Shown one piece after another: positions 1 to 19,244 of a stretch of 45,744 nt of DNA. The number at the start of each line of letters is the position of its first letter. Position 1 is the first letter of the stretch. The DNA comes from a virus (lineage: Duplodnaviria; Heunggongvirae; Uroviricota; Caudoviricetes): positions 1 to 45,744 of the IMG/VR virus record IMGVR_UViG_2671180921_000030; one strand, 5' to 3'. The translations under genes and the position numbers were made by a program. The notes under the pieces were generated by a model, which saw only the letters and a program-made list of their open reading frames with translations, made no database searches and was not told where the DNA came from.

Positions 1-342
1 ATGATGAAAAAAAGTATTCTGGCGTTTCTGTTACTCACCAGTTCTGCAGCGGCGCTGGCTGCACCGCAGGTGATTACCGTCAGCCGTTTTGAAGTGGGTA
101 AAGACAAATGGGCGTTTAATCGCGAAGAGGTGATGCTGACTTGCCGACCGGGTAATGCTTTGTATGTCATCAACCCAAGTACCCTCGTGCAGTATCCTTT
201 AAACGATATCGCACAAAAGGAAGTTGCCAGTGGGAAGACTAAAGCCCAACCCATTTCGGTGATTCAGATTGATGATCCTAACAATCCCGGCGAAAAAATG
301 AGTCTGGCACCGTTTATAGAACGAGCTGAAAAACTCTGTTAA
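1..342 (+). CDS. yebY: YebY-like exported protein, chromosomal flank
   Basis: ORF 1..342 with N-terminal signal peptide ([20 protein letters not shown]); matches my recollection of 113-aa enterobacterial YebY; hairpin terminator follows. Confidence 0.7.
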
Positions 343-375
343 TTACCTAAAATAGCCTTTTGATTTCCAATAAAA

Positions 376-413
376 AAACCGCCTCAGTTCTTTCACCAGA
401 ACGGGCGGTTTTT
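376..413 (+). terminator. Rho-independent terminator after yebY
   Basis: Interrupted GC stem (ccgcc..gttct/agaac..ggcgg) followed by a T run. Confidence 0.5.
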
Positions 414-500
414 AACATTTCAGCTGATGACCACCACGCTTTTTATTGACCATTTTGCACGCAAACTGGAAAACCTGGCGTCGTCATCTATTCTTAAAGG

Positions 501-603
501 GCAAGGCAACTAAGCCTGCATTAATGCCAACTTTTAGCGCATGGCTCTCTCCCAAGAGCCATTTCCCTGGACCGAATACAGGAATCGTATTCGGTCTCTT
601 TTT
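501..603 (+). ncRNA. sdsR: SdsR (RyeB) small RNA
   Basis: gcaaggcaactaagcctgcattaatgcc...ccgaatacaggaatcgtattcggtctcttttt matches my recollection of SdsR, including the terminal hairpin and U tail; lies between yebY and the prophage. Confidence 0.7.
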
Positions 604-604
604 A
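578..604. repeat. attL core (left copy of a 27-bp direct repeat)
   Basis: ACAGGAATCGTATTCGGTCTCTTTTTA here and ACAGGAATCGTGTTCGGTCTCTTTTTA at 44652..44678 (26/27 identical); integrase gene is adjacent. Confidence 0.6.
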
Positions 605-636
605 ATTGTATTTAAAATCAATTAGTTGCAAGCATC

Positions 637-656
637 TCCCCGAAATTCCCCGAAAT
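637..656. promoter_or_regulatory. Tandem TCCCCGAAAT repeats, candidate integrase arm-type sites
   Basis: Two tandem copies between attL core and int; related TCCCGAAATT near attR (44506..44515). Confidence 0.3.
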
Positions 657-734
657 TTACTCGAATTTCTGTATTCCGGTCTTTTTTGGTTATATCACAA
701 CCAATATACATTTAACAATCCATTTACGTTAAAA

Positions 735-1811
735 TCAGAGCAGTAAGTACGTTTTTTCTCGCTCATCAAGATACATTTTTGTTGTCTTCTCCGATGTGTG
801 ACCAAGTAGGCGCTGGGCAAATTCTTCTCCACATGTTTCTTTGTACAATCGTCCAGCCAGACTTCTGATCTCGTGAAAAGTTGGTGGGTTTTCACTGAAC
901 TGAATACCTGTTAATTTTCTGGCTGCGACAAATTTTTTTGTCAGGCCATCCGGGTGAATGCTGCCGTCAGGGCTGTTTTTTCTAATCCCGGCACTGATTA
1001 GATAATCTCCCCGGCTTACCAGGCGGCACCGTTCAACTACTGTACCAAGCCGTAGACCAGCGACAGGAAGGCTGAGTGACAGGGGGATAGCAATCATCAT
1101 TCCTGTCTTAATTTGCCTGATGTGGAGACGATCATCATAAATATCACTGAACCGCATATTCGTTATGTCTTCGCGACGTTGTCCTGTTACAAGGGCTAAA
1201 TCCATAGCTAATGGGAACCATGCCGGAAGTTGATCTGCTGCCTCCCTGATGCAGTTGTATGTCTTTAGTTTCAGTCGTTCTCTTGTAACTACTATTTTCG
1301 GTGCTCTTGTTGGCGTTACTGGATTTTGAGATATACGTCCTTCAACAATGGCCTCGCGAAACATATCAGACAACACAGAACGCATTGATCCTGCCATTGT
1401 GTTTTTCCCTCCTTCAATCCACAAATCAAGAAACTCGGCAATATGGCGAGTGGTTATTTCTGTCAGTAAAATCCCTCCCAATTTTTCTTTTATTGTCTCC
1501 AGTTGATTTACCCGAATTTTATAAGTATTTCTGGACACTTTTCTCCTTATAAGAATCGTTTTGTAACGTTCAATCCAGTCTGCCATAGTAAATGAGTCGA
1601 ACCCTTTAAGCTTTTCAATTAAGGCAGCAGGAGAGTAGTTTTTGTATATATAATGATTTGCTTCAATTGCCTGCGCTACTGCATCTCTTCTTGAAATTTT
1701 ACCTAGTGTAAATTCTTCTTTCGTCAGAGGGTTGCGCCAGTAATATGCTTTGTCCCTCCTTCGATATGTTAAGTTTTTAGGCAAATTGGGATCGTATTTT
1801 TTCCGCTGCAT
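735..1811 (-). CDS. int: Tyrosine integrase (lambda Int family)
   Basis: 358-aa ORF; C-terminal catalytic region with R..HxxR..Y context ([15 protein letters not shown]); adjacent to attL and xis. Confidence 0.9.
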
Positions 1812-2064
1812 GTTTTAACTTCTCCAGTAACGGACTGTCTCTCCCTTGTCGCCCATTAGGCTGATGGTGTGTTATATCGGTATCAACCTTATTTGGGTTG
1901 ATATAGAAAGCCTCCGGAACCACTCTGTAACTCCTCCCGTGTAGTTCAGGTGCAGGATAAATGTTTCCATTCCTTGCCCATCGTCTCAGCGTTGATATTG
2001 ATGGTGGGTTATCCGGATATCTGAGTTTTCCCCACGTTTTGAGTGTCACAAGATTCATTGCCAT
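1777..2064 (-). CDS. xis: Excisionase
   Basis: 95-aa ORF directly upstream of and overlapping int; small basic protein typical of Xis/AlpA-like excisionases. Confidence 0.65.
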   Translation of the reverse strand: MAMNLVTLKTWGKLRYPDNPPSISTLRRWARNGNIYPAPELHGRSYRVVPEAFYINPNKVDTDITHHQPNGRQGRDSPLLEKLKHAAEKIRSQFA

Positions 2065-2164
2065 ACCTCTTACGATATGACCGCCAGTAAATATACAGAA
2101 TACTGGCGGGTGTGGTTGATTTTTAATAATCAGCTATGAAGTTCTAATTTGTATATAATGCAAC

Positions 2165-2353
2165 TCACGAGGACAGAAGTTTCTCGCAATTAAAATTTAT
2201 CAGCTTTACTTTCTGCTCTCTGGACACGCCTGCTTCTTTTTTCCCTGAGAGCATTTTTTCGCATTCTGATTTCGTTAATTTAGATTTTGAATATCTTGTC
2301 CAGTTAGTAGGAGTGCCACCTTCCTTTTCAATAGTGGCAGTAATTTTATACAT
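2165..2353 (-). CDS. YdaC-like small phage protein
   Basis: Start trimmed to the ATG preceded by GGAGGTG; overlaps ralR stop; position as in Rac prophage. Confidence 0.45.
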   Translation of the reverse strand: MYKITATIEKEGGTPTNWTRYSKSKLTKSECEKMLSGKKEAGVSREQKVKLINFNCEKLLSS

Positions 2354-2540
2354 GAACACCTCCATTATTATTTCCAGTAGTTCGTTTATTCCATCTTTCG
2401 AGTGCTTCTTTTTCACTTCCACTATAGCCGGTTCGGGATTCGCATCCGTTACACTTTGCGCGGTAATATCCTGAAATGGCTTTCACCGTAACAGATGGAC
2501 AACCACAAAACGGACATGGTTTAACATCGTCATATCTCAT
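2346..2540 (-). CDS. ralR: Restriction alleviation protein Lar/RalR
   Basis: 64-aa product MRYDDVKPCPFCGC...GGVHV with Cys-rich motif; matches recollection of Rac RalR; start chosen by homology, no strong SD. Confidence 0.65.
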   Translation of the reverse strand: MRYDDVKPCPFCGCPSVTVKAISGYYRAKCNGCESRTGYSGSEKEALERWNKRTTGNNNGGVHV

Positions 2541-2596
2541 AATTTTTGTCATAAAAACTGTCTCACGTTGGCGGTGCATTACACCGCCTGGCTGAA

Positions 2597-3406
2597 TTAT
2601 TCTTCTGAATTATCGATTACACTGTATTCCCCGGTTAATACAGAGGAGTCTGCCGGATCGATTGTCAGTGGTTCCTTTTCATCCATTGATACTGCACGCT
2701 GGATTTCAATTGAGACAGGCAGGTATTTAAACAGGCGACGAATAGCCGTTTTTTTTGCCATTTCTTCCCAGTGAGTTACCCACGGCCCGTTATTACCTGC
2801 CTTACTCTGGCTGCGCACCAGTTCAATCTGTTTGCGCGTCATAACTTCAAACTGAGTCCCTCCGTCTTTCAGTCTTGCGACAGCATAGACGTGGGTCACT
2901 GGTGCATCTTCGTTTTCTCCCGGGCGGTGTATTAACTTTTCATCAAGGCCAAATTCAAAACTAAACTCGTCACCTTCACGGACAACACGGGCTGACAGGC
3001 TGGCGATTTGACCAGAACGGCGAGCCAGATCAATCATGCCGCGATAACCAATGATTAGCTGAACGTTCTTTTTACCGCTCTTTTCGTTTTTATTACCAAA
3101 AGGCAGTAAATATGCGTGGCCGAGGGCGCTACCTGGCTCAAGGCCGAGCTGTGAACACTGAACGATCGCACTGACAAAACTCATGGTGTCACAGTTTCCT
3201 AGCGCCGGAACCTTACGAATTTCTGTAGTGGCGATACGTATCATTCGTTCAGCCGTCATATGGCGTGGGAGAGCTGCTGCCAGTTGCTCTTTCATTGATG
3301 GCTGATTAATAAAGCTGATCACGTCGTTATTTTTTACTGCTGCTGGTGCACGGTTTCCCTGAGTTTTTTGCAGATCGGCTTTTGCGATAGGCGGTTGCTT
3401 AGTCAT
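2597..3406 (-). CDS. recT: RecT single-strand annealing protein
   Basis: Product begins [14 protein letters not shown], 269 aa; ORF trimmed to the second ATG; overlaps recE stop. Confidence 0.9.
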
Positions 3407-6071
3407 TTGCATACTCCTTAGCCCAGCGGGGCAGTGATAACGTTTTAATAGCTGGCCATTCATCGGTATTCAGGCAGTCAGCCAGGGTCCTCAGATTGCG
3501 GTGATATTCCTGCTGGCCTGCCAGTTTTGCTTCTTCGCCCATCATGAAAATCTCAACCGGGTAACGTCCGCATTCAACAGTTGTGCTGGCAACCAGAAAA
3601 ACGAAAGTTGGCAGCACACCAAACTGTGCTTCATAACCGTCACTGTAGAATGCATCCTGAACGTGATAGCGGTAGTCGTAATAAGCCGTTTTGAATCGTT
3701 GAATATCCGCTGTGGTTTTCACGTCCATGATCCAGTGAAATTCAGGAATAATTTTGTCCGGACGGCACCGACACAAAATTCCTGTTTCCGGATCTTCCCA
3801 GTAAATTGATGATTCAGCGTGTCCGGCGCTTTCCACAAGCCATTGACCCAGCGGCAAAGCCATAACGCTCTGATACATGAGTTCAATTTTCCGGCCTTCT
3901 TCGGCAGTGATAACCGTTTTTCCTGTGCTTGCGCATTCCATCAGAAACGCTTTCTCTTCTTCTTTTCCGGCGTTTGTACGGCGGTTAAATTCAGGTGCTA
4001 CGATAAAGCGGTTACTGAATTCTTCCGGTTCAAGTACACGGCAGTGGAAAGCGGTTCCTAAATCGAGCGTTTTTGTCTTTGTGGTGTCCACAGGGGCATT
4101 TTTACGCCACAAATACAGCGCCGGAGTATCAGCAATGTCGTCGAGCTGAGACTTACTGACACCGGGACCCGCGTGGTAATTCTCATTCGAAATTCCGTAA
4201 TAAATACCAGGCTCTATGTCTCCTGCGATTACGGGATCTGCGACTTCGCCAGTTTCATCACTGCAATCGCGATGCAGATCGCTGCCAGCATTCTCATTGT
4301 GCGGATGTTCAGGGCCTTCCATTTCCTCCGGCTCTTTTTCCTGAGATTCATCCAGATTTTCTTCATTAAAGGTTTCCTGATACGTTGCGTCGCCCATCAC
4401 CGCGCCACAGTCAGGACAGTTGCCGCCGCCAGCCTGACCGCAGGCATTGCAGACTTTTTCCAGTTCCTGTTGCGCTTCTGGTTCATTTTGTCGCGCATTT
4501 TGGCCGTTTTGTTCCGATTTTCGGTCGTTCTGTTCTGTTTCTGGCTGATGCTGGTACACAGAATCGCGGGTCTGGATCCCTTTAACCCATTTCGGATCAT
4601 TCGGGTCGCTAATCCCTTCAACAAATTCTCCGCGAGAGGCAGCCAGTAATTTGTCTGCATCGACAGGATTTTTGGGCGGAATGTTTTTCCGGGCTTCATG
4701 GAGTTCTGCCCGCAGTTTCTGATATTTCGCATCAACAGAATTTACCTGTGACTGAGCATCCAGCGGCTGCGTGTCCTGATGATGTTCAGTTGCATCCGGT
4801 TCCACTGTTTCAGCCGTTGCCTGTTCATCTGCCATTGCGCAAGATGGTTGCGGTTTTTCTTCATCATCCTGTTTTTCTTCTTCTGTTACACGCTGCGGCA
4901 TCGGGGCAGAGGAGCGACCGCAGGCAATATCCACGATTTCCGGATCAGGGTTGGCATGATCGGTTTCAGTCAGTACTTTGTTCAGATATTCAGTGACGTG
5001 TGCGGGGATGACCTCGATCCCAATTGGTGCTTCTTTTACGGACGCAACCACGATGGCGCGGGAATAATCCAGCCCGCCAGGCATGGTGATGAATTTGTCG
5101 CGGAAAACAGAAAAGGGCGGTTTATTTTCAGCGATAATTTCCTCGACACGTTTAGCGTGTGCCGGATGAAGGTTATAAATGTCCACGTCCATTGAACGAG
5201 CCAGTACGCCAGTGGCTACGTCGCGCGCCAGTGACGTCAGATCGTGAACGAAACCTTCGCCGCGATCGGTGAGGTTCCCGCCGCCAGCATTAGCGCCGGA
5301 AGCCGTGCGCGTGATGCGTGAAACACGATTTCCTTTTCGCCATTCTTTTGTCAGAAGACTGCGATCAATGTGTTCGGTATCCAGCCAGGCTGAAATGAAA
5401 TTCTTAAATTCATAGGGCTGATGTTTTTTCGTGATAGAGAACACTGCCTTAATTGCATCAGTCAGGCGGAGCAGGGCGGCATTATCCAGAGTTGTCGGTT
5501 CTGCCATGCTGCGTATGGCCAACAGCAGATTCTGGACATAGCTGTTTTCCTGATCCATCTCAAGAGCAGTAATGTGTTTGCGTTGTTCACGGGTGGCATG
5601 ATGCAGGTATTTCCGATCCCCGGCTGCATACGTAAATATGTGCAGAAGACGCTGTGTGAACCGCAAAGTGGCTACAGAGACTTCGCAATCCTGGCAATCC
5701 TCGTGGGCGTCTGCCTGCGCGTTTTCTTCCTGGCCTCCCGCCAGTTCTTTGGTTTCTTGAGCATTATCCTGGTGGTGAACGTCGTCTGGCGCTGCTCCCG
5801 GTTTTAGTTCCCAGGTCATGGAGTCTTTGCTGAGTTGATAGCGGTCACTCCAGGTAAAATCGATCTCACCTTCAGGGGGAAGGTCATTAACGACAGGAAA
5901 ATTCGTGGCAACAGGTTTAAAATAGCTGCTCAGTTTTTTGCCTGACTTAACGAGCAGGTAGTCCAGAGTGGCACAGGTCGATTCAAGATCGTCGCTTGCC
6001 CACAGGACGACGTCAGGTTCACCGGATGATTTTTTCGCTTTCCGTAACAGGAAGAGTGGTTTTGTGCTCAT
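3399..6071 (-). CDS. recE: Exodeoxyribonuclease VIII (RecE)
   Basis: 890-aa ORF beginning [14 protein letters not shown]; acidic linker region; upstream of and overlapping recT. Confidence 0.85.
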
Positions 6072-6201
6072 TGTTTTTTAACCTCAACTCAGATTAAAAT
6101 TCGTTTTGTTCAGTGAATGATCTTGCCGGATACACACTGTTCATAGCCTGCGTATGGCGCAGGCTATTTCTTTCAGATTTCACCGCCTAATTTCATTGCA
6201 A

Positions 6202-6447
6202 TCAGAGTTGCCAGAAATCCGGCTTTTTTTCTGCGGGCAGATTCTTTCCGATGTGAACCAGGCACATTTTTGTGACACCTTCATCAAGTGTTTTTACGTT
6301 GCCTGATGGACCGTCGATATCAACCACAGTGAATGGGGTTTCTTTATTTTCTGTTTTAATCACGTAGCCAATACGCTTTCCTTCCAGATTAACCTCGTGA
6401 ACAATGTCATCGGTCGTTACAACAGTGGCTTCATAACTGGTAATCAT
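6202..6447 (-). CDS. racC: RacC-like protein
   Basis: Start trimmed to MITSYEATVV preceded by AAGGAG; Rac-like position between recE and ydaE. Confidence 0.55.
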   Translation of the reverse strand: MITSYEATVVTTDDIVHEVNLEGKRIGYVIKTENKETPFTVVDIDGPSGNVKTLDEGVTKMCLVHIGKNLPAEKKPDFWQL

Positions 6448-6521
6448 GTTTTTCTCCTTAATTAAGGTTGAGCGAATCCCTGCCATTGCTGGCATAAATT
6501 TAGTTTCGGATAGTCAGTTAA

Positions 6522-6698
6522 TTAAAGTTCGTGTGCCATCTGGTCTTTTTCGGCACAGATTTCACTACAATATTTTTTCATTTCCGTCGTTGGTATAACT
6601 CCACGCATGAAATGAAGTGGTCTTGTAATGATTTTGCTTTCTTCAATTTCTTTATTGCAAAGGTGATAAGCACATTTTATTTTCTTAGTCATCACCAT
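6522..6698 (-). CDS. ydaE: YdaE-like Cys-rich small protein
   Basis: 58-aa ORF not in the track ([20 protein letters not shown]...[15 protein letters not shown]) found by translating the minus strand; overlaps kilR stop. Confidence 0.5.
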
Positions 6699-6913
6699 GA
6701 CTCCGCCTTTACAGGTAAACCATCACGACCGAGGAAGACTTTAATCATGCAGTCAGTAATGCATGTTTTTGTGGTCAGGTTACGAATATAAAGTTTTCGC
6801 TTTTTAATATTGTTTGCCGAGGCAATATATGTCCGGCCTTCATGAAGAACATAATCGCCAGGAGTCACACACTGACGTGGTATTTCATCAGTTCCGAAGT
6901 GATGAGCAATCAT
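6692..6913 (-). CDS. kilR: Killing protein KilR (cell division inhibitor)
   Basis: 73-aa product [30 protein letters not shown] matches recollection of Rac KilR. Confidence 0.7.
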
Positions 6914-7380
6914 AATTATCTCCATTTTTACAAATGAACTTTGTTGATGCGGTGCCTGGTGCCTCCAGGTGACGTTAACCAGTTAACAATTAACGCCGGA
7001 ATACAGGGACCCGCCTGCAAGTACCTACCCATAAGTATTGATACGGAGAACAAATGGCCTTTTAACTGTTCCGCGTGCGCTTAGCCGCATTCACCGCATC
7101 ACAAAATTCACTTTAAAAAGGGCGGACATCAGCCAGCAATGAAACTGATGCCGCCAAAAGGTAATCAACATGGGTTGTTGCAGCGGGGTTGTCACTTAAG
7201 CGTATGGTCAGCCTGACAACCCGGTGTTATCTCGAGGAAAGGATAGCCTCGCCATACTTACCGCCGCGCCATTTCGCGGATTGCCACAACCGGAAGCGCA
7301 CGGTCGAAGAAATTTAACGACAAGCCTTCTAAGGGAAAAACACCTCCTCCGTGCGCTTTCGTGTTGTGCGCCTGTCTTTT

Positions 7381-7409
7381 TTTACCACTTCAGGCTCGGT
7401 GGTATACTG
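7381..7409 (+). promoter_or_regulatory. Sigma70-like promoter (TTTACC, 17 nt, TATACT)
   Basis: Hexamers with 17-nt spacing about 35 nt upstream of ORF 7443..7637. Confidence 0.35.
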
Positions 7410-7442
7410 GAGTTCTCACACAACCAGTAATAAGGTATTCCG

Positions 7443-7637
7443 ATGGATAATAAAGACAAAGCCTGGCTACTTGCTTTAGCTTTCAGCATCAGATCGCAGC
7501 GAGAAACAACTCATCAAGAATTTTTCTCGGAAATCGAGAATGCTGAGAATGAGTTTTTGTCACTACTCAATGAACGTGATGCTAAAAAAAGCGCCGATTC
7601 ACTTAAGGCTTGGGCGAAACTAGGCTCTTCAAAATAA
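7443..7637 (+). CDS. Hypothetical small protein with own promoter
   Basis: 64-aa ORF with non-repetitive sequence and AAGG upstream; convergent overlap with 7603..7821. Confidence 0.35.
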   Translation: MDNKDKAWLLALAFSIRSQRETTHQEFFSEIENAENEFLSLLNERDAKKSADSLKAWAKLGSSK

Positions 7638-7821
7638 TTGCTTCTGTAGCGGCATGAACAACTGTTTTTGCCGCCTCTTCAACTTCCTTGTCTGGACGAC
7701 CAGCCTTTACTTTTTCTGCAATGACCTCCAGCACAGTTGGAAGAACCTTGCTAATAAGCATGGCTGCCACATCTTTGCTGCACAATTGACCGTTAATAAC
7801 AACCAGATCTTCACCAACCAT
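7603..7821 (-). CDS. Hypothetical early-region protein
   Basis: Trimmed to ATG preceded by AAGGGG; lies between the repressor and kilR. Confidence 0.4.
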   Translation of the reverse strand: MVGEDLVVINGQLCSKDVAAMLISKVLPTVLEVIAEKVKAGRPDKEVEEAAKTVVHAATEAIILKSLVSPKP

Positions 7822-8065
7822 CTTTTTTCCCCTTAACGCCGGGTGGCGGAACGTTTTATCTACTGCGCTTTGTATCAATCAACAACTGCCGTCATGTTCG
7901 TATGCCTCAGGCTGGCTACTTAGCCCTGTTCAGTGGCTGGATAACTCGAGGTATTGTCCTGCCGTTCTCTGGTGGAGCGTTGTTTGGATATGACGAATGC
8001 TCACATATCGTGAGTGATTTGTCAACTCAATATGTGAACAATGTTGTTTTTGGATTTTTGATGGA

Positions 8066-8099
8066 CAAAAAAAGCCCTCGCTAATAGCGAGAGCTTTTT
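8066..8099 (-). terminator. Terminator downstream of the repressor gene
   Basis: GC stem gccctcgc/gcgagagc flanked by A7 and T5. Confidence 0.45.
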
Positions 8100-8125
8100 G
8101 ATTGGAATCGAGGGAGATTAAAGGT

Positions 8126-8515
8126 TTAGGAGGATTTTTTCTGTTGCCTGCTTCTTAGATATTTTTCCACATACTCATCAAGCTCTTGAAGACGGATTTC
8201 GAACAGATCAATCATGCGTGCTTGTTCTGATCCCGGGAGCTGATTAAACAGCTCTAGCATTTTTTTCTGGTTATCATTTAACCATGAGTACGTGTTTTCC
8301 TGTTCACCGAACATTAATTCTGCGGGGGAAATGCCTAGTACTTGGCCGAGGATGATCGCATCCTCAGCCCCCACACTCCTGGTGCCAGCTTCGTAGTTAG
8401 CAATACGAGAAGAACCTGACCAACCACATAGTTTTGCCAGGTTTCCCATACTTAATCCTCGATTTAGGCGAGTGGCTTTTAGGCGCTCGCCTATTTGTTC
8501 TGCAATCGTTTTCAT
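8126..8515 (-). CDS. CI-like HTH (XRE family) repressor
   Basis: Trimmed to MKTIAEQIGERLKATRLNRGLSMGNLAKLCGWSGSSRIANYE (helix-turn-helix); divergent from Cro-like gene. Confidence 0.7.
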   Translation of the reverse strand: MKTIAEQIGERLKATRLNRGLSMGNLAKLCGWSGSSRIANYEAGTRSVGAEDAIILGQVLGISPAELMFGEQENTYSWLNDNQKKMLELFNQLPGSEQARMIDLFEIRLQELDEYVEKYLRSRQQKKSS

Positions 8516-8609
8516 AGTTCCGATTTTATCACGATGTGTGAAATTGGCGGTACTCACGTATCTGTAGTTGATCTCACTCACGAAATGTGAATAATAGAAA
8601 CAGGAGGTA
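8516..8609. promoter_or_regulatory. Immunity-region divergent promoter/operator interval
   Basis: 94-bp gap between divergent repressor and cro-like genes with repeated ACTCACG and TGTGAA motifs. Confidence 0.4.
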
Positions 8610-8855
8610 ATGATGAACAAAATTTCAACATATCGAAAACAGCTTGGGCTGTCTCAAAGACAACTTGCTGTTCAGTTAGGGTGGATACAAAGCCGACTGG
8701 CAAATTACGAAGCAAATTTTCGTACCCCTGGGCTAGAGGAGTGCAGAAAAATTGTTTCTACCCTTAATCGGCTTGGTGCTCATTGTGGACTTGACGATGT
8801 ATTCCCCCCTGACGGTAAGCATAGCGAAAACAGCATAGGAGCGGTTGATTCATGA
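8610..8855 (+). CDS. Cro/YdaS-like HTH protein
   Basis: HTH signature QLGLSQRQLAVQLGWIQSRLANYE; AGGAGG upstream; true start may be the second ATG at 8613. Confidence 0.6.
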   Translation: MMNKISTYRKQLGLSQRQLAVQLGWIQSRLANYEANFRTPGLEECRKIVSTLNRLGAHCGLDDVFPPDGKHSENSIGAVDS

Positions 8856-9278
8856 AAATCAAGCATGAGCACATCGAATCAGTGTTGTTAGCCCTGGCAG
8901 CCGAAAAAGGGCAGGCGTGGGTCGCTAACGCAATTACTGAAGAATATCTGCGCCAGGGGGGGGGGCGGCGAATTGCCCCTTGTACCAGGCAAGGACTGGA
9001 ACAATCAGCAGAATATCTATCACCGTTGGTTGAAAGGTGAAACGAAAGCGCAAAGGGAAAAAATTCAGAAACTGATCCCTGCGGTTCTGGCAATTCTTCC
9101 GCGCGAGCTGCGTCACCGACTCTGCATCTTCGATACCCTGGAACGCCGTGCATTACTGGCGGCGCAGGAAGCGTTGAGTACGGCAATTGATGCGCATGAT
9201 GATGCAGTCCAGGCCGTTTACCGGAAAGCACATTTCAGCGGTGGTGGGTCGCCCGGCGATTCTGTCGTAGTGCATTGA
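8852..9278 (+). pseudogene. YdaT-like gene split by a frameshift at a G10 tract
   Basis: ORFs 8852..9040 and 8973..9278 in different frames overlap at the G run 8956..8965; removing one G gives one continuous reading frame. Confidence 0.5.
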
Positions 9279-9322
9279 TTGAAATTAATCGTGCCGGATT
9301 GTTTTGTTCGGTATCAGTTAAA

Positions 9323-9766
9323 TGTAACGCTGCGAGCGTTACAAGGTGAAAACAAATGGCTTCAAACTGGATAAAGCTCGAGGTTATTACGCCGGATAAG
9401 CCGGAAATATTCAGGCTTGCTGAGATTCTGAATATTGATCCAGATGCCGCATTAGGGAAGGTTATTCGCTTCTGGGCATGGGCGGATCAACAAATGATAG
9501 ACGGTAATGCAGATTGTAACGCTCGCGGCGTTACAAAAAGTGCAATAGATCGCATCACTTTTATGGCTGGTTTTGCTGATGCGTTAATTCAGGTTGGATG
9601 GCTGGTCGAAAATGACGGTGGGCTTTCTCTACCTAACTTTGAACGTCATAACGGGAAAAGCTCTAAAAAACGGGCGGTTACAAACGAGCGAGTTACAAAA
9701 ATACGCGAACTGAAACGAAAAGGTAACGCTGGCAGCGTTACACAAATGGATCAAAAAGCGTTACCA
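9323..9766. repeat. Iteron-like TGTAACGC-N5-GCGTTACA palindromes, candidate replication origin
   Basis: Palindromes at 9323..9343, 9515..9535 and 9724..9742 plus extra GTTACA half-sites at about 9675, 9689 and 9758. Confidence 0.4.
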
Positions 9767-10150
9767 GAGGAAGAGGAAGAGGAAGAGGAAGATATAAATA
9801 CTGATCTCCCCCTAAATCCCCCTCGCCAAAAACGAGCGTCTAAAAAATTTGAGCCGGAGGCTATTGAGCTGCCCGATTGGTTGCCGGAAACACTCTGGCA
9901 TGAGTGGGTCCGGTTCAGGCAGGCATTGCGAAAACCGATTCGAACGGAGCAGGGCGCTAACGGGGCGATACGGGAGCTGGAAAAATTCCGCCAGCAGGGT
10001 TTTACACCTGAGCAGGTGATTCGACACAGTATCGCCAATGAATACCAGGGCCTGTTCGCGCCGAAAGGTGTTCGGCCTGAGACGTTGCTCCGACAGGTTA
10101 ACACCGTCTCGTTGCCGGACAGTGCGATCCCGCCAGGCTTCAGGGGGTAA
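9356..10150 (+). CDS. Phage replication initiation protein
   Basis: 264-aa ORF just upstream of DnaC-like loader; internal acidic E8 stretch encoded by (GAGGAA)4; iterons inside its 5' half. Confidence 0.55.
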   Translation: MASNWIKLEVITPDKPEIFRLAEILNIDPDAALGKVIRFWAWADQQMIDGNADCNARGVTKSAIDRITFMAGFADALIQVGWLVENDGGLSLPNFERHNGKSSKKRAVTNERVTKIRELKRKGNAGSVTQMDQKALPEEEEEEEEDINTDLPLNPPRQKRASKKFEPEAIELPDWLPETLWHEWVRFRQALRKPIRTEQGANGAIRELEKFRQQGFTPEQVIRHSIANEYQGLFAPKGVRPETLLRQVNTVSLPDSAIPPGFRG

Positions 10151-10156
10151 CAGGCC

Positions 10157-10903
10157 ATGAAAAATATTGCGACAGGAGGCGTTCTGGAGCGTATCCGCAG
10201 ACTGACCCCACCACATGTAACCGCCCCATTCAGAACGGTTGCGGAGTGGCGCGAGTGGCAACTTGCTGAAGGCCAGAAACGTTGCGAGGAGATCAACCGC
10301 CTGAATCGTCAGTTGCGGGTGGAAAAAATCCTGAATCGCTCTGGCATCCAGCCGTTGCACCGCAAATGCTCGTTTGCGAATTACCAGGTGCAGAACGAAG
10401 GGCAGCGATACGCGTTAAGCCAGGCGAAATCCATCGCCGATGAACTGATGACCGGGTATACAAATTTTGCGTTCAGCGGAAAACCTGGTACCGGGAAGAA
10501 TCACTTAGCGGCAGCTATCGGGAATCGCCTGCTGAAAGACGGTCAGACAGTGATTGTGGTTACCGTGGCTGATGTTATGAGCGCCCTGCACGCCAGCTAT
10601 GACGACGGGCAGTCAGGCGAAAAATTTTTGCGGGAGCTGTGCGAAGTGGATCTGCTGGTTCTTGATGAAATTGGCATTCAGCGCGAGACGAAAAACGAGC
10701 AGGTGGTGCTGCACCAGATTGTTGATCGCCGGACAGCGTCGATGCGCAGCGTGGGGATGCTGACAAACCTGAACTATGAGGCCATGAAAACATTGCTCGG
10801 CGAGCGGATTATGGATCGCATGACCATGAACGGCGGGCGATGGGTGAATTTTAACTGGGAGAGCTGGCGTCCGAATGTTGGTCAGCCAGGAATTGCGAAG
10901 TAA
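10157..10903 (+). CDS. DnaC-like replicative helicase loader (IstB-like AAA+ ATPase)
   Basis: Walker [16 protein letters not shown] and Walker B LLVLDEIG. Confidence 0.8.
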
Positions 10904-10925
10904 TTTTTACCGGGAGGAAATTTTA

Positions 10926-11687
10926 ATGGAGACTGTTTTTGACGCACTGAAAGCAATGGGAAAAGCCACATCCATAGAACTTGCTGCGCGACTTGATATC
11001 AGTCGTGAAGAAGTGCTGAACGAACTATGGGAACTGAAAAAGGCTGGTTTTGTTGATAAAAGCGCGTACACCTGGCGTGTGGCTGATAACAACGTTCAGC
11101 AGGAACAGCCAGCGCAGGCAGAACTGCCGGAAGAAACCACCACAGCAACAGTAGCGAAAATCTCAGAGTGCGATTTAACCGCTACGATTGAACAACGCGG
11201 ACCACAAACGGCTGATGAGCTGGCTACATTGTTTGGTACCACATCACGCAAAGCGGCTTCAACGCTGGCAATGGCAATCAGCAAAGGTCGTCTGATTCGC
11301 GTAAATCAGGGCGGTAAATTTCGTTACTGCATGCCGGGCGGTAATTTACCAGCAGAGCCGAAAGCTGCATCGGTAGCGGAAACAGATGGTAAAGCCTTTC
11401 CTCAGCTAGCCGGTGTTGCGTTACCAGTACAGGAAGCTGCAACACAGGAAGATATTAAAACAGAAACTGTGGCGGACATTGTGCAGTCGTTGCCATCGTT
11501 TACTGAAACGCAAGCGGATAACCTGATTTTACCATCGCTGCATATGGCAAACCGTGAACTGCGTCGGGCGAAAAATCATGTCCAGAAGTGGGAGCGAGTC
11601 TGCGCCGCGCTGCGGGAGCTGAACAAGCACCGGGATATTGTTCGACAGATTTTCGATTCCTCCAGTCGTATTGTGTCGGAAAAGTGA
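10926..11687 (+). CDS. Hypothetical phage protein with two winged-helix-like repeats
   Basis: Start trimmed to [13 protein letters not shown]; repeats [30 protein letters not shown] and [33 protein letters not shown]. Confidence 0.4.
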
Positions 11688-12133
11688 TTGCCGGAGGCAC
11701 CTATGGCAAAGTATTTACACCAGAAGAGCGGGAAAAAATTAAAGGGCAGGTTGTTGAACTTGTACGTCTGAGCGGTCGCGAGACGTTACGGGCTCTGGAG
11801 GCTAAAACCGGTGCATCAAGGTATTACATAAGCACTCTCGCCAGAGAACTGGTCGCCAGTGGTGATGTTTACAATTCAGGCTACGGATTATTCCCGTCTG
11901 AGCAGGCTCGTAAGGACTGGCAAAACGCCCGCAAAAAACTATCCAGGGCAAAGGTGAAAAAAACGGTTGTGGTTGATCCTGACCTTATCTGGTCATTACC
12001 AGACGGAGAAATACGCCGCTACGACAGGCGCCTGAATATAATCTGTCGCGAGTGCCGGAAAAGCGAAGTTATGCAGCGTGTACTGGCATTTTACCAGAGT
12101 AATTTCAGGAGGTTGTCTGGTGAGCACGATTAA
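11684..12133 (+). CDS. Hypothetical protein
   Basis: Open frame beginning at a GTG that overlaps the upstream stop; function unknown. Confidence 0.35.
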
Positions 12134-12158
12134 CTACTAGGGGGGATAACAATAAAAT

Positions 12159-12178
12159 AAAGCCTCCTAGGAGGCTTT
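12159..12178. terminator. Perfect 20-bp palindrome, bidirectional terminator
   Basis: AAAGCCTCCTAGGAGGCTTT with A-rich and T-rich flanks between convergent genes; the methyltransferase stop codon is in its centre. Confidence 0.5.
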
Positions 12179-13207
12179 GATTATATTAAGCAAATGTTTT
12201 CCAATCGTTTCAGACATCTTCGGAGGGACCGCATTTCCTATTTGACGAGCCCGAGATTGCAAAGAACCAATAAATTTATAATCCAAAGGAAATGTTTGTA
12301 GACACGCTGCTTCACGAACCGATATTGCTCGATTTTGTGTTGGATGTCCAAAACGTCCATTTGAATAGCTAATACAACGAGTTGTTAGTCCGCTGGCTGG
12401 TTTGTCCCAACTCAAACGTCCATATACGTCTGTATGCCCTTTATGGTTACGATGGCATTCTAAAATCAATTCATCTGGCCAAAATTCTCGACTTCCACCT
12501 TCAGGAGTGCATTTTATTCTACGTAAATTAAGCTCTGATAAGCGTGCAGCTTCATGATCAGGAATACTATTATGCTTTTCTCCTGCTTCTATCTTCGGTA
12601 AATTAGCGATCCAGTCCTTTACTGTTGAATAGGGAGTATTTCCAACCCCATGTGTAGGAGAAGGCAATGCGACATAAAAATCCTTGGATGCAATGAGCAC
12701 TAATCTTTCTCGCGTCTGTGGTACACCGTACCACGCAGCTGGCATTACTTTATAATCTACACTATATCCCTTTGATGAAAGCATTTCTAAAAACATCATG
12801 AATGTTCCTTCATTTTTGTTAAACTTTTGCATTCCTGGCACGTTTTCAACAAAAATAAAATCAGGCATATAATGCTCTACAAAGCGACTGAATTCCTTTA
12901 ATAGATCTAATCGTGGATCATCATTTTTCTTATTTGAGTTTTGCTTAGAGTACGGTTGACAAGGCGCACATCCTGAAAAAAGAATGTAATCATTACGATG
13001 TTTTTTTACTAACTTGTTTATGGCATTGTTGTCGATTAACCTAATGTCCGAGTTAATAAAAGCAGCCTGCGGGAAATTTGCACGAAATGAACTGGCTGCA
13101 TCAACGTCGAAATCGAGGCCAAAAACAATATCCATTCCAGCTTGATGGAAACCTTGGCTGGTTCCACCACAACCGGAAAAGAAGTCAAACACTTTGATTT
13201 TTTTCAT
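12167..13207 (-). CDS. DNA (cytosine-5)-methyltransferase
   Basis: Motif I FDFFSGCGG, motif IV PCQPYS, ENV, QTRERL, GNAVPP; trimmed to MKKIKVF preceded by AGAGGGA; AT-rich by inspection. Confidence 0.85.
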   Translation of the reverse strand: MKKIKVFDFFSGCGGTSQGFHQAGMDIVFGLDFDVDAASSFRANFPQAAFINSDIRLIDNNAINKLVKKHRNDYILFSGCAPCQPYSKQNSNKKNDDPRLDLLKEFSRFVEHYMPDFIFVENVPGMQKFNKNEGTFMMFLEMLSSKGYSVDYKVMPAAWYGVPQTRERLVLIASKDFYVALPSPTHGVGNTPYSTVKDWIANLPKIEAGEKHNSIPDHEAARLSELNLRRIKCTPEGGSREFWPDELILECHRNHKGHTDVYGRLSWDKPASGLTTRCISYSNGRFGHPTQNRAISVREAACLQTFPLDYKFIGSLQSRARQIGNAVPPKMSETIGKHLLNIIKAS

Positions 13208-13230
13208 TTTTCCCTCTGCATCCAGAATCA

Positions 13231-15060
13231 CTACCTAATGATACCACGGTCAAGAGCCTGAGTAATTATTTTTCTTATTTTTATAAATTCAGGCAATTCA
13301 TTTTTAAGTCTTGCGGTCATCATTTGTTGGAGGCAAAAAATTTCCTCTGCATTTACTTCTTCTTTATCATACAGGTGTTGCGCTAATAATCTTATTTGAT
13401 TCTTATACAGTTCTGGATCATTAGAACTCCAGGTCTGTGAATCAATTATTTCTTTTTCACTTGGCGTAATTGCCTTTTCAATGAGTAATTGTTCGGGAGT
13501 ATCAAATGGTAAATACTGCACTTTATTGAATGCATACTCAAGCACTTGCCTTTTGAGTCTATTAGATTCTTGTTCATTTTTTTTGCCATTACTACCACTG
13601 GCATTGATAATTAACTCGCAACCATAATATTTGCACATTGTATTAACTAAATCAGCATCAGCAATTTCACTAATTCTTACTGGTTTTATTTTTTTGTTGT
13701 TATCACCATCAAGTAAAAACAAAATATCATTGCGTTCTACCACAGCGTAACTGGGAAGATGCTTGCTTAAAATGGTCTCCGAACCACCTGGTATATAACT
13801 TACACTAAATGATAAGCTTAATCTTTCATCATTTTTAATCGCTTTATCTATAATTGCTTTAGCTAATTTATCTTCTACAATTATTGTTTTCTTGTTAATA
13901 TCATGCCCTAGCTCTATAAAAGCTTCATCCGGTGCTATATTTTGAACTATTTTAGCTGTTTCACTCTCTTCATCAAAAACAAATAATTTAATGGCATCTT
14001 TGGGAAGAGTGTTCACAATAACAGGAGAATGGGTTGATATTACCACTTGATGTTTTTTCTGCTCAACAATAGAGTACAGAACATCCATCATCCTTTTTTG
14101 TGCACCAGGGTGAAGTGAAACTTCTGGTTCGTCAAGAAGAATTAATGAATTAGGTTTGGCCGAATAAATATTGAGTATTAGTGAAACTATTGCAAATTCA
14201 CCACTTCCAGCAAACGCTTCTGTATAGTTCAACTTATCAGTTGAAAGTAAAGCGGTTCCTCCTCTGGTTCCAAATAACCGATGCTCAAGAAATTTAATGA
14301 CTTTATATTTTTTCCCTAATATAAATGAGACGTGCTCAACTAGTTCTGGCGCCAAGGTTATATTTTTAACAATGGTTTCCGCCCCCCAGAGTCTTAAATT
14401 ACTTAGCTTTTCATCAAAAGCTTTCTTTATATATTTAGATTTGCTTCTGATATAGTCTTGCTTTGTAATTAATACACCACTCTTCTTCTTTCTTAATTTA
14501 AAATCAGAGTGATACATACATCTATCAAATGCACTTATTTCCGATCTGAAATCTAGGAAAACCAATCCCTTCTTGATTTTTTTCCATCTGGTTGCATTAC
14601 TATTAGCACCCAGATCATCCGAAATACTCTCCATGTTATCACCAACAGATGGTCGACTTGTTTCCCAATAATCGATTGTTTTCTTGGTAGCATTGATACG
14701 TGCTTGGAGTATTTCAACTAAACGGCCATCAGCATTTTTATATCCATATATATATCTAGGTTTAAGAGAACTGCCATCAGCAAGTTTTAGGTCAGGAAAC
14801 TCATCTGTTTCAGTTGTGAACCAATAACGAGTTATATTTTTACCATGTGGGCAACCAAATAGCGCTTTGATAACAGAACTTTTATTAGTTCCATTTTTTC
14901 CTACTAAAGCCGTTATAGGGAACTGAAAATCGATCCTTGCATTCTGCTCTATATTTTTAAAGTATGGAAAACGGATATGTTGTATGAATGGTTCAAATTC
15001 ACCGTTTTTTAACGCGCACTGGAGTGTTCGAATTTTGCTCTTGTATGCGGAAGTGCTCAT
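13231..15060 (-). CDS. OLD-family ABC-ATPase with C-terminal TOPRIM nuclease domain
   Basis: Walker A LVGKNGTNKSS, Walker B/D-loop LLDEPEVSLHP, H-loop ISTHSP, TOPRIM-like IIVEDK and LFLLDGDN; 23-nt gap to downstream methyltransferase. Confidence 0.75.
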   Translation of the reverse strand: MSTSAYKSKIRTLQCALKNGEFEPFIQHIRFPYFKNIEQNARIDFQFPITALVGKNGTNKSSVIKALFGCPHGKNITRYWFTTETDEFPDLKLADGSSLKPRYIYGYKNADGRLVEILQARINATKKTIDYWETSRPSVGDNMESISDDLGANSNATRWKKIKKGLVFLDFRSEISAFDRCMYHSDFKLRKKKSGVLITKQDYIRSKSKYIKKAFDEKLSNLRLWGAETIVKNITLAPELVEHVSFILGKKYKVIKFLEHRLFGTRGGTALLSTDKLNYTEAFAGSGEFAIVSLILNIYSAKPNSLILLDEPEVSLHPGAQKRMMDVLYSIVEQKKHQVVISTHSPVIVNTLPKDAIKLFVFDEESETAKIVQNIAPDEAFIELGHDINKKTIIVEDKLAKAIIDKAIKNDERLSLSFSVSYIPGGSETILSKHLPSYAVVERNDILFLLDGDNNKKIKPVRISEIADADLVNTMCKYYGCELIINASGSNGKKNEQESNRLKRQVLEYAFNKVQYLPFDTPEQLLIEKAITPSEKEIIDSQTWSSNDPELYKNQIRLLAQHLYDKEEVNAEEIFCLQQMMTARLKNELPEFIKIRKIITQALDRGIIR

Positions 15061-15208
15061 TGTTTACTAAAGTCCATAATAGGCTATTAACAGGTTGAGG
15101 ATGACATGATAACGATTTTTAATGCAGATAAAAGAGGTTTGTTGGTTAGCACACAACAGAAAAAGTGACCTTACCGCTTGAACGAAAGGTAAGGGTAAGT
15201 AGGCTGTG

Positions 15209-15361
15209 ATGCAGCAAAAGACGATGTTAACCGCCCTGATCGTCATCTGTTTAACCGTCATTGTTACGGCACTGGTAACGAGAAAAGACCTCTGCGAGGT
15301 ACGAATCCGAACCGGCCAGACGGAGGTCGCTGTCTTCACAGCTTACGAACCTGAGGAGTAA
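15209..15361 (+). CDS. hok: Hok/Gef-family type I toxin
   Basis: 50-aa ORF below the track cutoff: MQQKTMLTALIVICLTVIVTALVTRKDLCEVRIRTGQTEVAVFTAYEPEE, almost identical to my recollection of HokD/RelF. Confidence 0.75.
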   Translation: MQQKTMLTALIVICLTVIVTALVTRKDLCEVRIRTGQTEVAVFTAYEPEE

Positions 15362-15429
15362 GAGACTAGGCGAGGGAGAAATCCCTCGCCACCTCTGATG
15401 AGTCAGGCATCCTCAACGCACCCGCGCTT

Positions 15430-15452
15430 AACCCGTTTCGGCGGGTTTTTTG
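15430..15452 (+). terminator. Rho-independent terminator downstream of hok
   Basis: Stem acccg/cgggt followed by T6. Confidence 0.5.
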
Positions 15453-15483
15453 TTGCGCGCTGAATACGCAGGGTGAAAAATAA

Positions 15484-15556
15484 CCATATATTTGATTATA
15501 TACACAACACAAAATAAAAGTCATTGTACCTGCACATTAAATAATCAAATATATGG
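15484..15556. repeat. Perfect 16-bp inverted repeat pair with 41-bp spacer
   Basis: CCATATATTTGATTAT (15484..15499) and its exact reverse complement ATAATCAAATATATGG (15541..15556). Confidence 0.6.
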
Positions 15557-15636
15557 CGTGAAATAAATATTTTTCAGATTAATATTTTTGTCTCTATGTG
15601 GATATAACCTTTTGTACTTATAAACCTGGAGGCATC

Positions 15637-15849
15637 GTGGAAAAAATAAAGAAACTATTTAGTAGCAAATACGCAGTCATACGTCGTGATGACCTGTCAG
15701 TTATAGTCGAAATGGATTACTTCCCTGAAATCCCAAAATCAATGATGTATCGTAATGGTCGAAAGGCAATTTTTTTACCGATGAGGGTAAGTGACATTAT
15801 GGGAAATGATAAACTGCTGGATGAATTGCGAGTCAGAGCATCCTGTTAG
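15637..15849 (+). CDS. Hypothetical nin-region protein
   Basis: Trimmed to GTG preceded by GGAGG. Confidence 0.35.
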   Translation: MEKIKKLFSSKYAVIRRDDLSVIVEMDYFPEIPKSMMYRNGRKAIFLPMRVSDIMGNDKLLDELRVRASC

Positions 15850-15920
15850 TATTGGCATTAATTCTGGTATACTACATAACGGGCTGAACACCCATTCTAC
15901 TGCGCCAGCGGAGAACTACG

Positions 15921-16520
15921 ATGGCGCATATACAACTGGTCAAACAAACCTCTTCCGGATTACTTCTCCCGGCGACGCCGGAGAGTTGCGATTTTTTGCA
16001 TCAAATCAAAATAGGTGAGTGGATACACGCAGACTTTAAGCGTGTGCGTAACTATGCATTTCACAAGCGTTTTTTCAAACTTCTGCAACTTGGATTCGAT
16101 TACTGGACTCCGGTCGGTGGGGCGATCACACCTCGCGAACGAGAAATGGTGTTCGGCTTCGTTGATTACCTGTGTGAATCAGTAGGCAGGGAACATACGC
16201 CAGCTCTGAGTGATGCCGCGGAACAATATCTGAATACCGTTGCGACACGCAGAACCCAGGATATGGCATTGCTCAAATCATTTGACGCTTTCCGCGAGTG
16301 GGTGACCATTCAGGCCGGCTTCTACACCGAGCATTTTTATCCAGACGGTAGCCGCGGGCGTCGGGCGAAGTCCATTGCTTTTGCGAATATGGACGAAACT
16401 GAATTTCAACAGGTTTATAAAGCTGTACTTAACGTCCTGTGGAACTGGATCCTGTTCCGTAAATTCTCCTCTCTGGAGGAAGTCGAAAATGTGGCCGCGC
16501 AGATACTGGAGTTTGCGTAA
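15921..16520 (+). CDS. Nin-region protein (YbcN/DUF1367-like, tentative)
   Basis: 199-aa ORF with GGAGA upstream; position before YbcO-like gene and Q. Confidence 0.5.
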   Translation: MAHIQLVKQTSSGLLLPATPESCDFLHQIKIGEWIHADFKRVRNYAFHKRFFKLLQLGFDYWTPVGGAITPREREMVFGFVDYLCESVGREHTPALSDAAEQYLNTVATRRTQDMALLKSFDAFREWVTIQAGFYTEHFYPDGSRGRRAKSIAFANMDETEFQQVYKAVLNVLWNWILFRKFSSLEEVENVAAQILEFA

Positions 16521-16810
16521 TGGTGAGTTTACGTAAAGCAGCGCGGGGCCAGATGTGCCAGGTCAGAATCCCTGGCTACTGCAATCACAATCCCGAAACG
16601 TCTGTGCTGGCGCATTACAGGCTGGCGGGGACGTGCGGAACAGCGACAAAACCACACGATATGCAGGCAGCGATTGCCTGTAGCTCATGCCACGATTTAA
16701 TCGACGGGCGGGTAAAAACCAGCGATTACACCAAAGAAGAATTACGCCTGATGCATGCAGAAGGTGTTTTTCGCACACAAGAAATCTGGAGAAAGGAAGG
16801 TTATTTATGA
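16520..16810 (+). CDS. YbcO-like (DUF1364) putative nuclease
   Basis: 96-aa Cys/His-rich product LRKAARGQMCQVRIPGYCNHNPETSVLAHYRL...IACSSCHDLIDGR matches recollection of DLP12 YbcO. Confidence 0.6.
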   Translation: MVSLRKAARGQMCQVRIPGYCNHNPETSVLAHYRLAGTCGTATKPHDMQAAIACSSCHDLIDGRVKTSDYTKEELRLMHAEGVFRTQEIWRKEGYL

Positions 16811-17361
16811 TTTACCCAACAAATACAGGCAAAAGCGGGGAACACCTTCGTCTCACCACGCTGGAAAGTGTCTGGATTCAGGGAAAACTGCGCATGTGGG
16901 GGCGCTGGTCGTATATTGGCGGCGGTAAGACGGGAAATATGTTCAACCAGTTGCTGACCTCTAAAAAGCTGACAAAAACGGCAATTAACGAGGCGCTCCG
17001 GAGGATGAAAAAAGCAGGTCTGGACAAACCTGAACTTGAGGCTTTTTTGCGGGATATGATCAACGGCAAGCAAAAAAGCTGGCTGGTGCATTGTACTGAT
17101 GCAGAGGCGTTATGCATTGATCGGGTGATTAGTGAAGTGCTGGCAGAACACCCAGGATTGATTTGTATCCTCCGGCAACGATATGAAGGGCGGGGGATGA
17201 CTAAGCGAAAAATGGCTGAATTGCTGAATGATTCACACCCTGAGTGGTGTTACGCCACGTGCCGTAATCGCATAGATGCGTGGTTGAAAATGGCAGAGTT
17301 TATGCTCTATCTACCGATGCGTGATGCATTCTCTTCCGGGGATCTAAAAACCGTCTGTTGA
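16807..17361 (+). CDS. Q-like late antiterminator (phage 82/21 type, tentative)
   Basis: Trimmed to MIYPTNTGKSG overlapping the upstream stop; WGRW motif; followed by promoter plus terminator as for pR'/tR'. Confidence 0.5.
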   Translation: MIYPTNTGKSGEHLRLTTLESVWIQGKLRMWGRWSYIGGGKTGNMFNQLLTSKKLTKTAINEALRRMKKAGLDKPELEAFLRDMINGKQKSWLVHCTDAEALCIDRVISEVLAEHPGLICILRQRYEGRGMTKRKMAELLNDSHPEWCYATCRNRIDAWLKMAEFMLYLPMRDAFSSGDLKTVC

Positions 17362-17387
17362 CTCAATCTGTTATCCGGGGCTATATT
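17358..17387 (+). promoter_or_regulatory. Candidate late promoter pR'
   Basis: TTGACT, 18 nt, TATATT immediately after the Q-like gene. Confidence 0.45.
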
Positions 17388-17448
17388 CCTCACGCGCCAG
17401 CAAAATCTGGCGTCGGGATTAGCACCCCGGATGTTTACGGAGCGATAT

Positions 17449-17471
17449 GAGACGCGCCCGCGTCTTTTTTT
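17449..17471 (+). terminator. Candidate tR' terminator
   Basis: GC stem agacgcg/cgcgtct followed by T7, about 60-80 nt downstream of the candidate pR'. Confidence 0.5.
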
Positions 17472-17635
17472 CATATCGTTTGCACAGTCACATTCGCGAT
17501 TTATGGCGGGCTGTGTGGGGGAGCCGAAAGGCTCGCCGGTTTCCGTACCCGGTAGTGCTAACCCCGCACAGTTCGCCACCACGATGATTAGCACCTGACG
17601 GTGGCGATAATGTCCAAATGTACGGAGTTATCGTT

Positions 17636-18217: not shown

Positions 18218-18313
18218 AAAAGTTCTTGCAATTTTAGCCATAAACTGCTTCAATCCCGGTACGCTTCGCAAAGCTGTATCGCGAGGCGAACCAAGCGCAT
18301 GAACTTTACCAGA

Positions 18314-18338
18314 ACCCGCCATTGAGCGGGTTTTGTTG
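18314..18338 (+). terminator. Rho-independent terminator
   Basis: Stem acccgc/gcgggt followed by a T run; closely resembles the terminator at 38554..38578. Confidence 0.45.
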
Positions 18339-18450
18339 TTTCTGGTACTGGCGAACCTGATGTTTCATTTCTGGAGCGCGATTCCTGGCGGAATACCTGG
18401 AATCGAGACATTCTGGTAAAATTGTGTTCAGTACAGGATGTGGAGGTGAG

Positions 18451-19150: not shown

Positions 19151-19244
19151 AAAAATCCTCTTTGTTTGAATTGTTACTTTTGGCGATTTAACGATATCAA
19201 ACACGAGTATATACCGCCAGAAGCTTAATCTGGCACTCCATCTG

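Follow-up and report, generated by a model that had tools for sequence, protein, structure and literature searches.

A ten-G run frameshifts the CII-like regulator gene ydaT in a Rac-like prophage of Escherichia coli, probably through replication slippage at an expanded tract

The DNA under study, a stretch of 45,744 nucleotides (hereafter, the window), is a Rac-like prophage of E. coli, approximately 43 kb in length and inserted between yebY and pphA/yebW, whose gene content comprises integrase, excisionase, RecET, Kil, immunity, replication and lysis functions along with myovirus-type morphogenesis genes. Its immunity region (Table 1) consists of a divergent CI/RacR/DicA-like repressor gene, a cro/YdaS-like gene and, translationally coupled to the latter via an ATGA overlap, the gene ydaT, which is broken into two reading frames at a run of ten G; a YdaU/O-like replication-initiator gene and a DnaC/YdaV-like gene follow. 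The YdaU/O-like gene downstream places ydaT where cII lies in lambdoid phages (i.e., 3' of the cro-like gene, 5' of the replication genes and divergent from the repressor gene), and this repressor–cro–ydaT order bears out the statement, in an earlier note on this DNA, that the split gene adjoins the immunity region. The YdaT-box over the ydaT start is the sole zero-mismatch instance in the window; the position was footprinted in Rac, and both motif and place agree (PMC11879457, PMC9986795). A scan of 8100-9400 for promoters and terminators returned none above shuffled expectation.

Table 1. Features of the immunity region and of the split ydaT gene (positions in the window)
Feature	Coordinates	Strand	Description
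CI/RacR/DicA-like repressor gene, divergent	8126..8515	-	HTH; 129 aa from ATG; WP_033544642.1
cro/YdaS-like HTH regulator gene	8610..8855	+	HTH_3; 81 aa; annotated neighbour in relatives
YdaT-box TTGATTCATGAAAATCAA	8845..8862	+	perfect match to TTGATT-N6-AATCAA; ydaT ATG inside the spacer
ORF1 (ydaT 5' fragment)	8852..9040	+	ATG start; 62 aa
G10 homopolymer	8956..8965	+	+1 frameshift site; codes the start of the Gly-rich alpha2-alpha3 HTH loop
ORF2 (ydaT 3' fragment, +1 frame)	8973..9278	+	TTG start; 101 aa
YdaU/O-like replication-initiator gene	9356..10150	+	relatives annotated 'phage replication initiator YdaU family'

Within the YdaU/O-like gene, a GAGGAA hexanucleotide repeat (9766-9790), which encodes a poly-Glu stretch, has a unit count (6 nt each) that is off by one relative to the closest complete genome, whose copy of the gene is disrupted. 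With this, the early region has two simple repeats that vary in length. The window's 264-aa replication protein was tried as a lineage marker and rejected as too widespread (364 index blocks, nearly all of them beside a ydaT with six G at the tract). Among database relatives of the region, PP818812.1 ('Actinobacillus phage vB_Apl-pPE4') has 94% DNA identity to the E. coli Rac-like immunity region (dicA, ydaS, ydaT); it is labelled with Actinobacillus pleuropneumoniae as its host, and either this label or the provenance of the record looks doubtful.

Reading the sequence confirms that a tract of exactly ten G splits ydaT into two frame-offset ORFs, positions 8950-8969 being CGCCA GGGGGGGGGG CGGCG. 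It is the sole run of eight or more G or C in the 45.7-kb window; shuffled windows contain 0.22 G9-mers on average, and the observed count was matched in 4 of 100 shuffles. ORF1 comprises 38 native residues (helices alpha1-alpha2) and a 24-residue out-of-frame tail, and its exact product is present in Logan assemblies; ORF2 holds the remaining loop, the recognition helix alpha3, alpha4-alpha5 and the tetramerisation helix alpha6. When the tract was reset in silico, G6, G9 and G12 each gave one ORF (140, 141 and 142 aa, respectively), and all other lengths from G5 to G14 were out of frame and truncated at 58-63 aa. As in a contingency locus, the G10 of ydaT is thus a coding tract whose length sets an ON or an OFF reading. 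The earlier note had held that nine G would read continuously, and they do, as a 141-aa ORF; the join that it gave for the nine-G product (QGGG-ELPL) is, however, that of the G6 form, the G9 join being LRQGGGGELPLVPG, with four Gly (QGGGGEL).

The repaired 141-aa protein scores 43.3 bits (threshold 21; E 5e-11) against Pfam family PF06254 (YdaT_toxin), which it matches over residues 50-112. It also matches phrog_163, 'CII-like transcriptional activator' (E 1.9e-36), and aligns end to end with PDB entries 3C4R and 8BT1 (YdaT of CP-933P). An equally complete alignment with YdaT (140 aa) from the Escherichia phage Rac record MN652886, whose host is E. coli 442/2, has 124 identical residues. Its H56, R57 and W58 fall, in G6 numbering, at residues 56-58, as in Rac YdaT, and it has the full architecture of the family: a POU-like HTH, a long alpha2-alpha3 loop, the recognition helix and alpha6. 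The unrepaired sequence lacks this architecture, ORF1 ending before alpha3. The 'YdaT-like' label of the earlier note is upheld by these matches, by which the repaired product is a member of the family, i.e., a YdaT / CII-like transcriptional regulator. Rather than serving as the toxin in a toxin-antitoxin system, YdaT is the functional analogue of lambda CII: on binding TTGATT-N6-AATCAA, it activates a reverse promoter that drives repressor synthesis (PMC8630535, PMC9986795, PMC11879457). In its structure, the loop that leads from alpha2 to the recognition helix alpha3 is exceptionally long (PMC9986795); H56 and R57 of alpha3 are essential for DNA binding, alpha6 is required for tetramerisation, and expression of the protein can be toxic and has strong host phenotypes (PMC11879457). 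The G tract codes for the first residues of the loop (QGGG(G)EL), where the Rac 442/2 allele reads QGESEL, from GGGGGAGAG. Because the loop varies in length, in-frame length changes at the tract would be expected to be tolerated. The frameshift, in contrast, precedes both the recognition helix and the tetramerisation helix, so that the 62-aa product of G10, devoid of alpha3 (H56/R57) and alpha6, should be non-functional, a loss that we infer from published structures and structure-function data on homologues.

Sequencing or assembly error was one of the explanations offered in the earlier note: the true tract would be G9 (or G6), and the extra G a homopolymer miscall. Because the identical G10 allele is present in independent assemblies, this now appears quite unlikely. 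Positions 1-19278 of the window are 100% identical to contig LOCS01000139.1 of GCA_001606755.1, from which the window probably derives, positions 7279-11012 are 100% identical to Logan contigs from SRR15366019 (the same contig in 8 samples) and ERR2777517, and a Logan contig from SRR18965773 is 99.6% identical to the latter interval: all carry G10. The allele is thus found in an NCBI assembly and at least three read-set assemblies, at 100% identity over 3.6-19 kb and without neighbouring split genes, although the independent runs could be re-sequencings of a few related isolates. ERR2777517 also repeats, at 100% identity, two further frame-changing indels of the window. Assemblers do separate the two lengths, since the G9 form of the same protein, with identical flanks, was resolved in 6 other contigs, and a second, independent G10 lineage is represented by 9 contigs from NCBI, Logan and ENA. 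For a miscall speak the lack of G10 among the best 60 of 1293 complete RefSeq E. coli genomes with the locus and the frequency of homopolymer errors at this very tract in public data (G5 and G4, in assemblies with other split genes). Given the base-for-base recurrence of G10, which supports the earlier note's alternative of a genuine frameshift or pseudogene allele, we conclude from the assembled sequences that G10 is in all likelihood a true allele of a bacterial lineage.

The erroneous assemblies merit notice in their own right. One group (e.g., GCA_974493465.1, GCA_974496785.1 and ERR10498147) has G5 at the ydaT tract together with split recE, dnaC-like, DUF977 and DUF1133 genes nearby, apparently as a result of uncorrected homopolymer errors, and such assemblies inflate the count of 'truncated YdaT' proteins in databases, where many truncated products have two or three nearby frameshifts each.

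A comparison with orthologues, which the earlier note had called for, found single genes rather than two separate ones, each an in-frame ORF of 140 or 141 aa, such that the two-frame arrangement of the window is not conserved. In a scan of IMG/VR flanks covering at least 120 stretches, G6 was present in all those read but one, which had G9; tracts of G7 or longer were all G9, in 4 IMG/VR contigs and 1 JGI metagenome contig. Among the best 60 of 1293 complete E. coli genomes with the locus, 54 had G6, five G9 and one G7, the last being O55:H7 DEC5A, whose ydaT is annotated as 'frameshifted' by PGAP. A scan of GTDB returned no tract of G7 or longer, which says little because GTDB holds one genome per species. 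Overall, about 99% of the sampled orthologues, among the matches listed, have G6, and a long, hypermutable tract is not conserved in the family. Exact look-up in a collection of 15 billion proteins recovered G9 alleles on five backgrounds (276, 81, 59, 6 and 5 contigs), on two of which the G6 version is almost absent; G9 is thus a sizeable minority class that adds one Gly to the length-variable HTH loop. The same look-up yielded eight different 59-aa products of G8 (about 18 contigs in total), three 62-aa products of G10 (5, 5 and 2 contigs in the cluster table, with 9 contigs read for the second) and one product of G11. Out-of-frame lengths hence account for about 31-39 contigs against about 427 with G9, or approximately 7-8% of expanded-tract alleles to about 92% in frame, a rough count that clonal sampling may have skewed.

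Close relatives are polymorphic for tract length. A single ydaT haplotype, identical at every base outside the tract, occurs with G9 (loci L003, L027 and L132) and with G10 (L153-L158), and over 13 kb the prophages of L153 (G10) and L027 (G9) share 99.85% identity; G8 and G11 are found as well. This allelic series, G8 to G11 on near-identical backgrounds, supports slipped-strand mutation as the mechanism, and because the repressor of the second G10 lineage differs from that of the window, the step from G9 to G10 occurred at least twice. Long mononucleotide runs are indel hotspots in E. coli, in which 8-bp G:C runs are already outliers (K-12; PMC8510543). No usable figure for the rate at which G9-G10 runs slip in E. 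coli was found in the literature, nor any relevant report on ydaT and frameshifting.

We therefore consider it likely that G10 is a genuine, heritable +1 allele, produced by replication slippage at a tract that expanded recently and is hypermutable, and that the silence of ydaT in the lysogen is why it has been tolerated. In this explanation, whose inferred parts are the succession of lengths (G6, then G9, then G10), the disabling of the product and the neutrality of that change, the common G6 (CAG GGG GGC GGC, read as QGGG) would have expanded in frame to G9 (QGGGG), an expansion tolerated by virtue of the tract coding for a loop of variable length across the family. The nine-G run would then have been prone to replication slippage, and the addition of one G would have produced G10, from which translation would leave the native frame after residue 38 and stop at residue 62. 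With ydaT repressed in the lysogen, and needed only to establish repressor synthesis upon infection, its loss would carry no cost to the host and so could persist. Indeed, since a CII-type function serves the establishment rather than the maintenance of lysogeny, and since expression can be toxic, a null ydaT may be neutral or even mildly beneficial to the host. Reversion of G10 is possible.

The broken frame might nevertheless be bridged, full-length YdaT still being made from G10 by +1 ribosomal frameshifting or by RNA polymerase slippage. The ORF1 frame reads the run as GGG GGG GGG and continues with the Arg codons CGG CGA, both rare in E. coli, and if tRNA-Gly slipped by +1 within the run, it would pair again without a mismatch, and the protein made would be precisely that of G9. 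But no stimulatory element was identified, and, because the orthologues are simply in frame, there is no sign of a selected recoding signal. Rescue by transcriptional slippage was rejected: in genome-wide data, homopolymer insertions in E. coli transcripts all lie in A or T runs, which makes it unlikely at a G tract, G and C runs being described as not slippage-prone (PMC5574713). We regard recoding in either form as very unlikely.

Still less credible, to the point of being negligible, is the proposal that the window carries two functional genes, encoding an N-terminal peptide and a truncated YdaT (alpha3-alpha6) that is translated from the TTG at 8973, with the G run as a Shine-Dalgarno mimic, and that might, for instance, be a dominant-negative partner for the YdaT of other prophages in the same cell. 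The run does end 7 nt 5' of this TTG, many E. coli genomes harbour 2-3 ydaT loci, and the 101-aa ORF is reported by gene callers in 30 contigs. However, this ORF arises with any frameshift at the tract, obvious sequencing errors included, and the orthologues are single genes. Two functional half-genes are improbable because the split cuts the HTH between alpha2 and alpha3, leaving neither half with a complete DNA-binding domain. The split should be recorded as a single ydaT pseudogene with a frameshift rather than as a pair of hypothetical genes.

Slipped-strand phase variation, also raised in the earlier note, is partly borne out: the mechanism is supported by the G8-G11 series, whereas a selected, reversible switch is not. 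Under such a switch, a G9/G10 contingency locus would reversibly toggle the CII-like regulator by slipped-strand mispairing, giving rise to subpopulations that differ in the establishment of lysogeny or in YdaT-dependent effects (RcsA activation, toxicity). The recurrence of G8, G9, G10 and G11 on near-identical backgrounds is as expected of it, nine or ten G are far above the G/C runs typical of E. coli, where even 8-bp runs are outliers in K-12 (PMC8510543), and YdaT expression has strong host phenotypes on which a switch could act (PMC11879457). Moreover, the out-of-frame share of the expanded alleles (the 31-39 contigs beside about 427 with G9) exceeds ordinary pseudogenisation and leaves room for a switching role. 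Against this, nearly all sampled orthologues keep the short G6, the tract is interrupted in Rac 442/2, in-frame lengths dominate within the expanded class, and every sampled assembly of the window's lineage shows G10 and no other length. The ON/OFF state would also rarely be visible to selection, because ydaT is repressed in lysogens, and the prophage bears another inactivating lesion, in its Neck1 gene. Phase variation is hence an unlikely account of the window's allele. That in the G9-expanded Rac-like prophages the tract turns the CII-like regulator ON and OFF heritably and reversibly, as a phage-borne contingency locus of E. coli, strikes us as slightly more doubtful again; were it true, lysogens and phages would form subpopulations differing in the establishment of lysogeny or in YdaT toxicity and activation of the RcsA regulon.

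The other lesion lies at 29192-29740, where a 184-aa Neck1/tail-completion gene (phrog_222, E 6e-49) is frameshifted into ORFs of 113 and 67 aa by a 13-nt deletion between GCCGC direct repeats at about position 29434, a deletion common to about 10 independent contigs. The prophage is probably unable to make infectious particles, and, with the production of infectious virions in doubt, selection on ydaT would have been removed. On sequence grounds the prophage appears to be already decaying and becoming cryptic, a reading that depends mainly on this one further clear lesion, the rest being largely intact. Three indels besides that of ydaT (1-nt, 1-nt and 13-nt) distinguish the window from the closest complete genome and were checked as possible signs of a low-quality assembly; we rejected this, since their reproduction in independent assemblies marks the 1-nt and 13-nt indels as real alleles. 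One of the 1-nt changes, A4 to A3 (11703-11710, at 11708), directly follows the ATG of a DUF977/Ren-like exclusion gene and puts this ATG out of frame; an upstream alternative start gives 148- to 149-aa forms, which are called in identical contigs, and the change may only move the start codon. The other, T4 to T3 at 21106 (gene at 21027-21575, minus strand), alters the last ~30 residues of a 182-aa phrog_30882 protein, now of 168 aa, and is found in 11 contigs, two NCBI assemblies among them. Neither of these two changes is counted as a clear inactivation.

Two further segments set the window apart from its closest relative. Between the DUF977/Ren-like gene and hokD, a two-gene island (12167-15060, minus strand) that is missing from the closest complete genome encodes a 609-aa AAA ATPase resembling OLD/AriA/PtuA/Gabija, whose best PADLOC match is HEC-04 (E 2e-34), together with a C5 cytosine methyltransferase of 354 aa that resembles Type II MTase/DruM (E 1e-96), and, judging from these matches, looks like a prophage-borne defence or moron cassette. 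At 41915-44345, the tail-fibre/tail-fibre-assembly region 5' of a 187-aa ORF (43744-44307) is without megablast alignment to the closest relative, which has pinE in the place of this ORF; this could be an invertible host-range segment of the Pin type that has diverged or lies inverted.

The ydaT G10 is an event of an ordinary kind, a homopolymer frameshift that disables a prophage regulator, and is both genuine and recurrent. Its interest is that public data hold recurrent natural null alleles of ydaT in Rac-like prophages, at one hotspot, in a gene that has recently been argued to stay unmutated. The series G6 to G9 to G8/G10/G11 would constitute a clean natural case in which an in-frame expansion within a tolerant loop creates a mutational hotspot that then hastens the loss of the regulator. 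The tract is a candidate for direct measurement of switching and is otherwise mostly a matter of housekeeping for annotation; if it switched measurably, it would be a rare case, both for E. coli and for a lysis-lysogeny gene of a phage, of phase variation by a homopolymer.

Compared with YdaT of the E. coli K-12 Rac prophage (UniProt P76064) and of CP-933P (8BT1), the window has the same order of repressor, cro-like gene, ydaT and replication genes and the same YdaT-box over the start codon, but the characterised proteins are intact, whereas the window's gene loses its frame beyond residue 38; at the position of the tract, the Rac 442/2 allele shows no more than an interrupted G5. Poly-G/C contingency loci are known in Neisseria, Bordetella and Campylobacter, and ydaT resembles them in having a G tract within the coding sequence where a change of +/-1 toggles the frame, with a series of G8 to G11 alleles. 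It differs in that the tract is not conserved across the family, in-frame alleles predominate, and the gene is a silent prophage regulator as opposed to a surface or restriction function. With cryptic prophages such as Rac, in which frameshifts and deletions build up in the genes that are left, the window's prophage shares a disabled regulator and a disabled virion gene (Neck1), lesions that are lineage-wide and the retention of most genes; unlike those remnants, it is of full length (~43 kb) and most of its morphogenesis genes are open, as befits an early stage.
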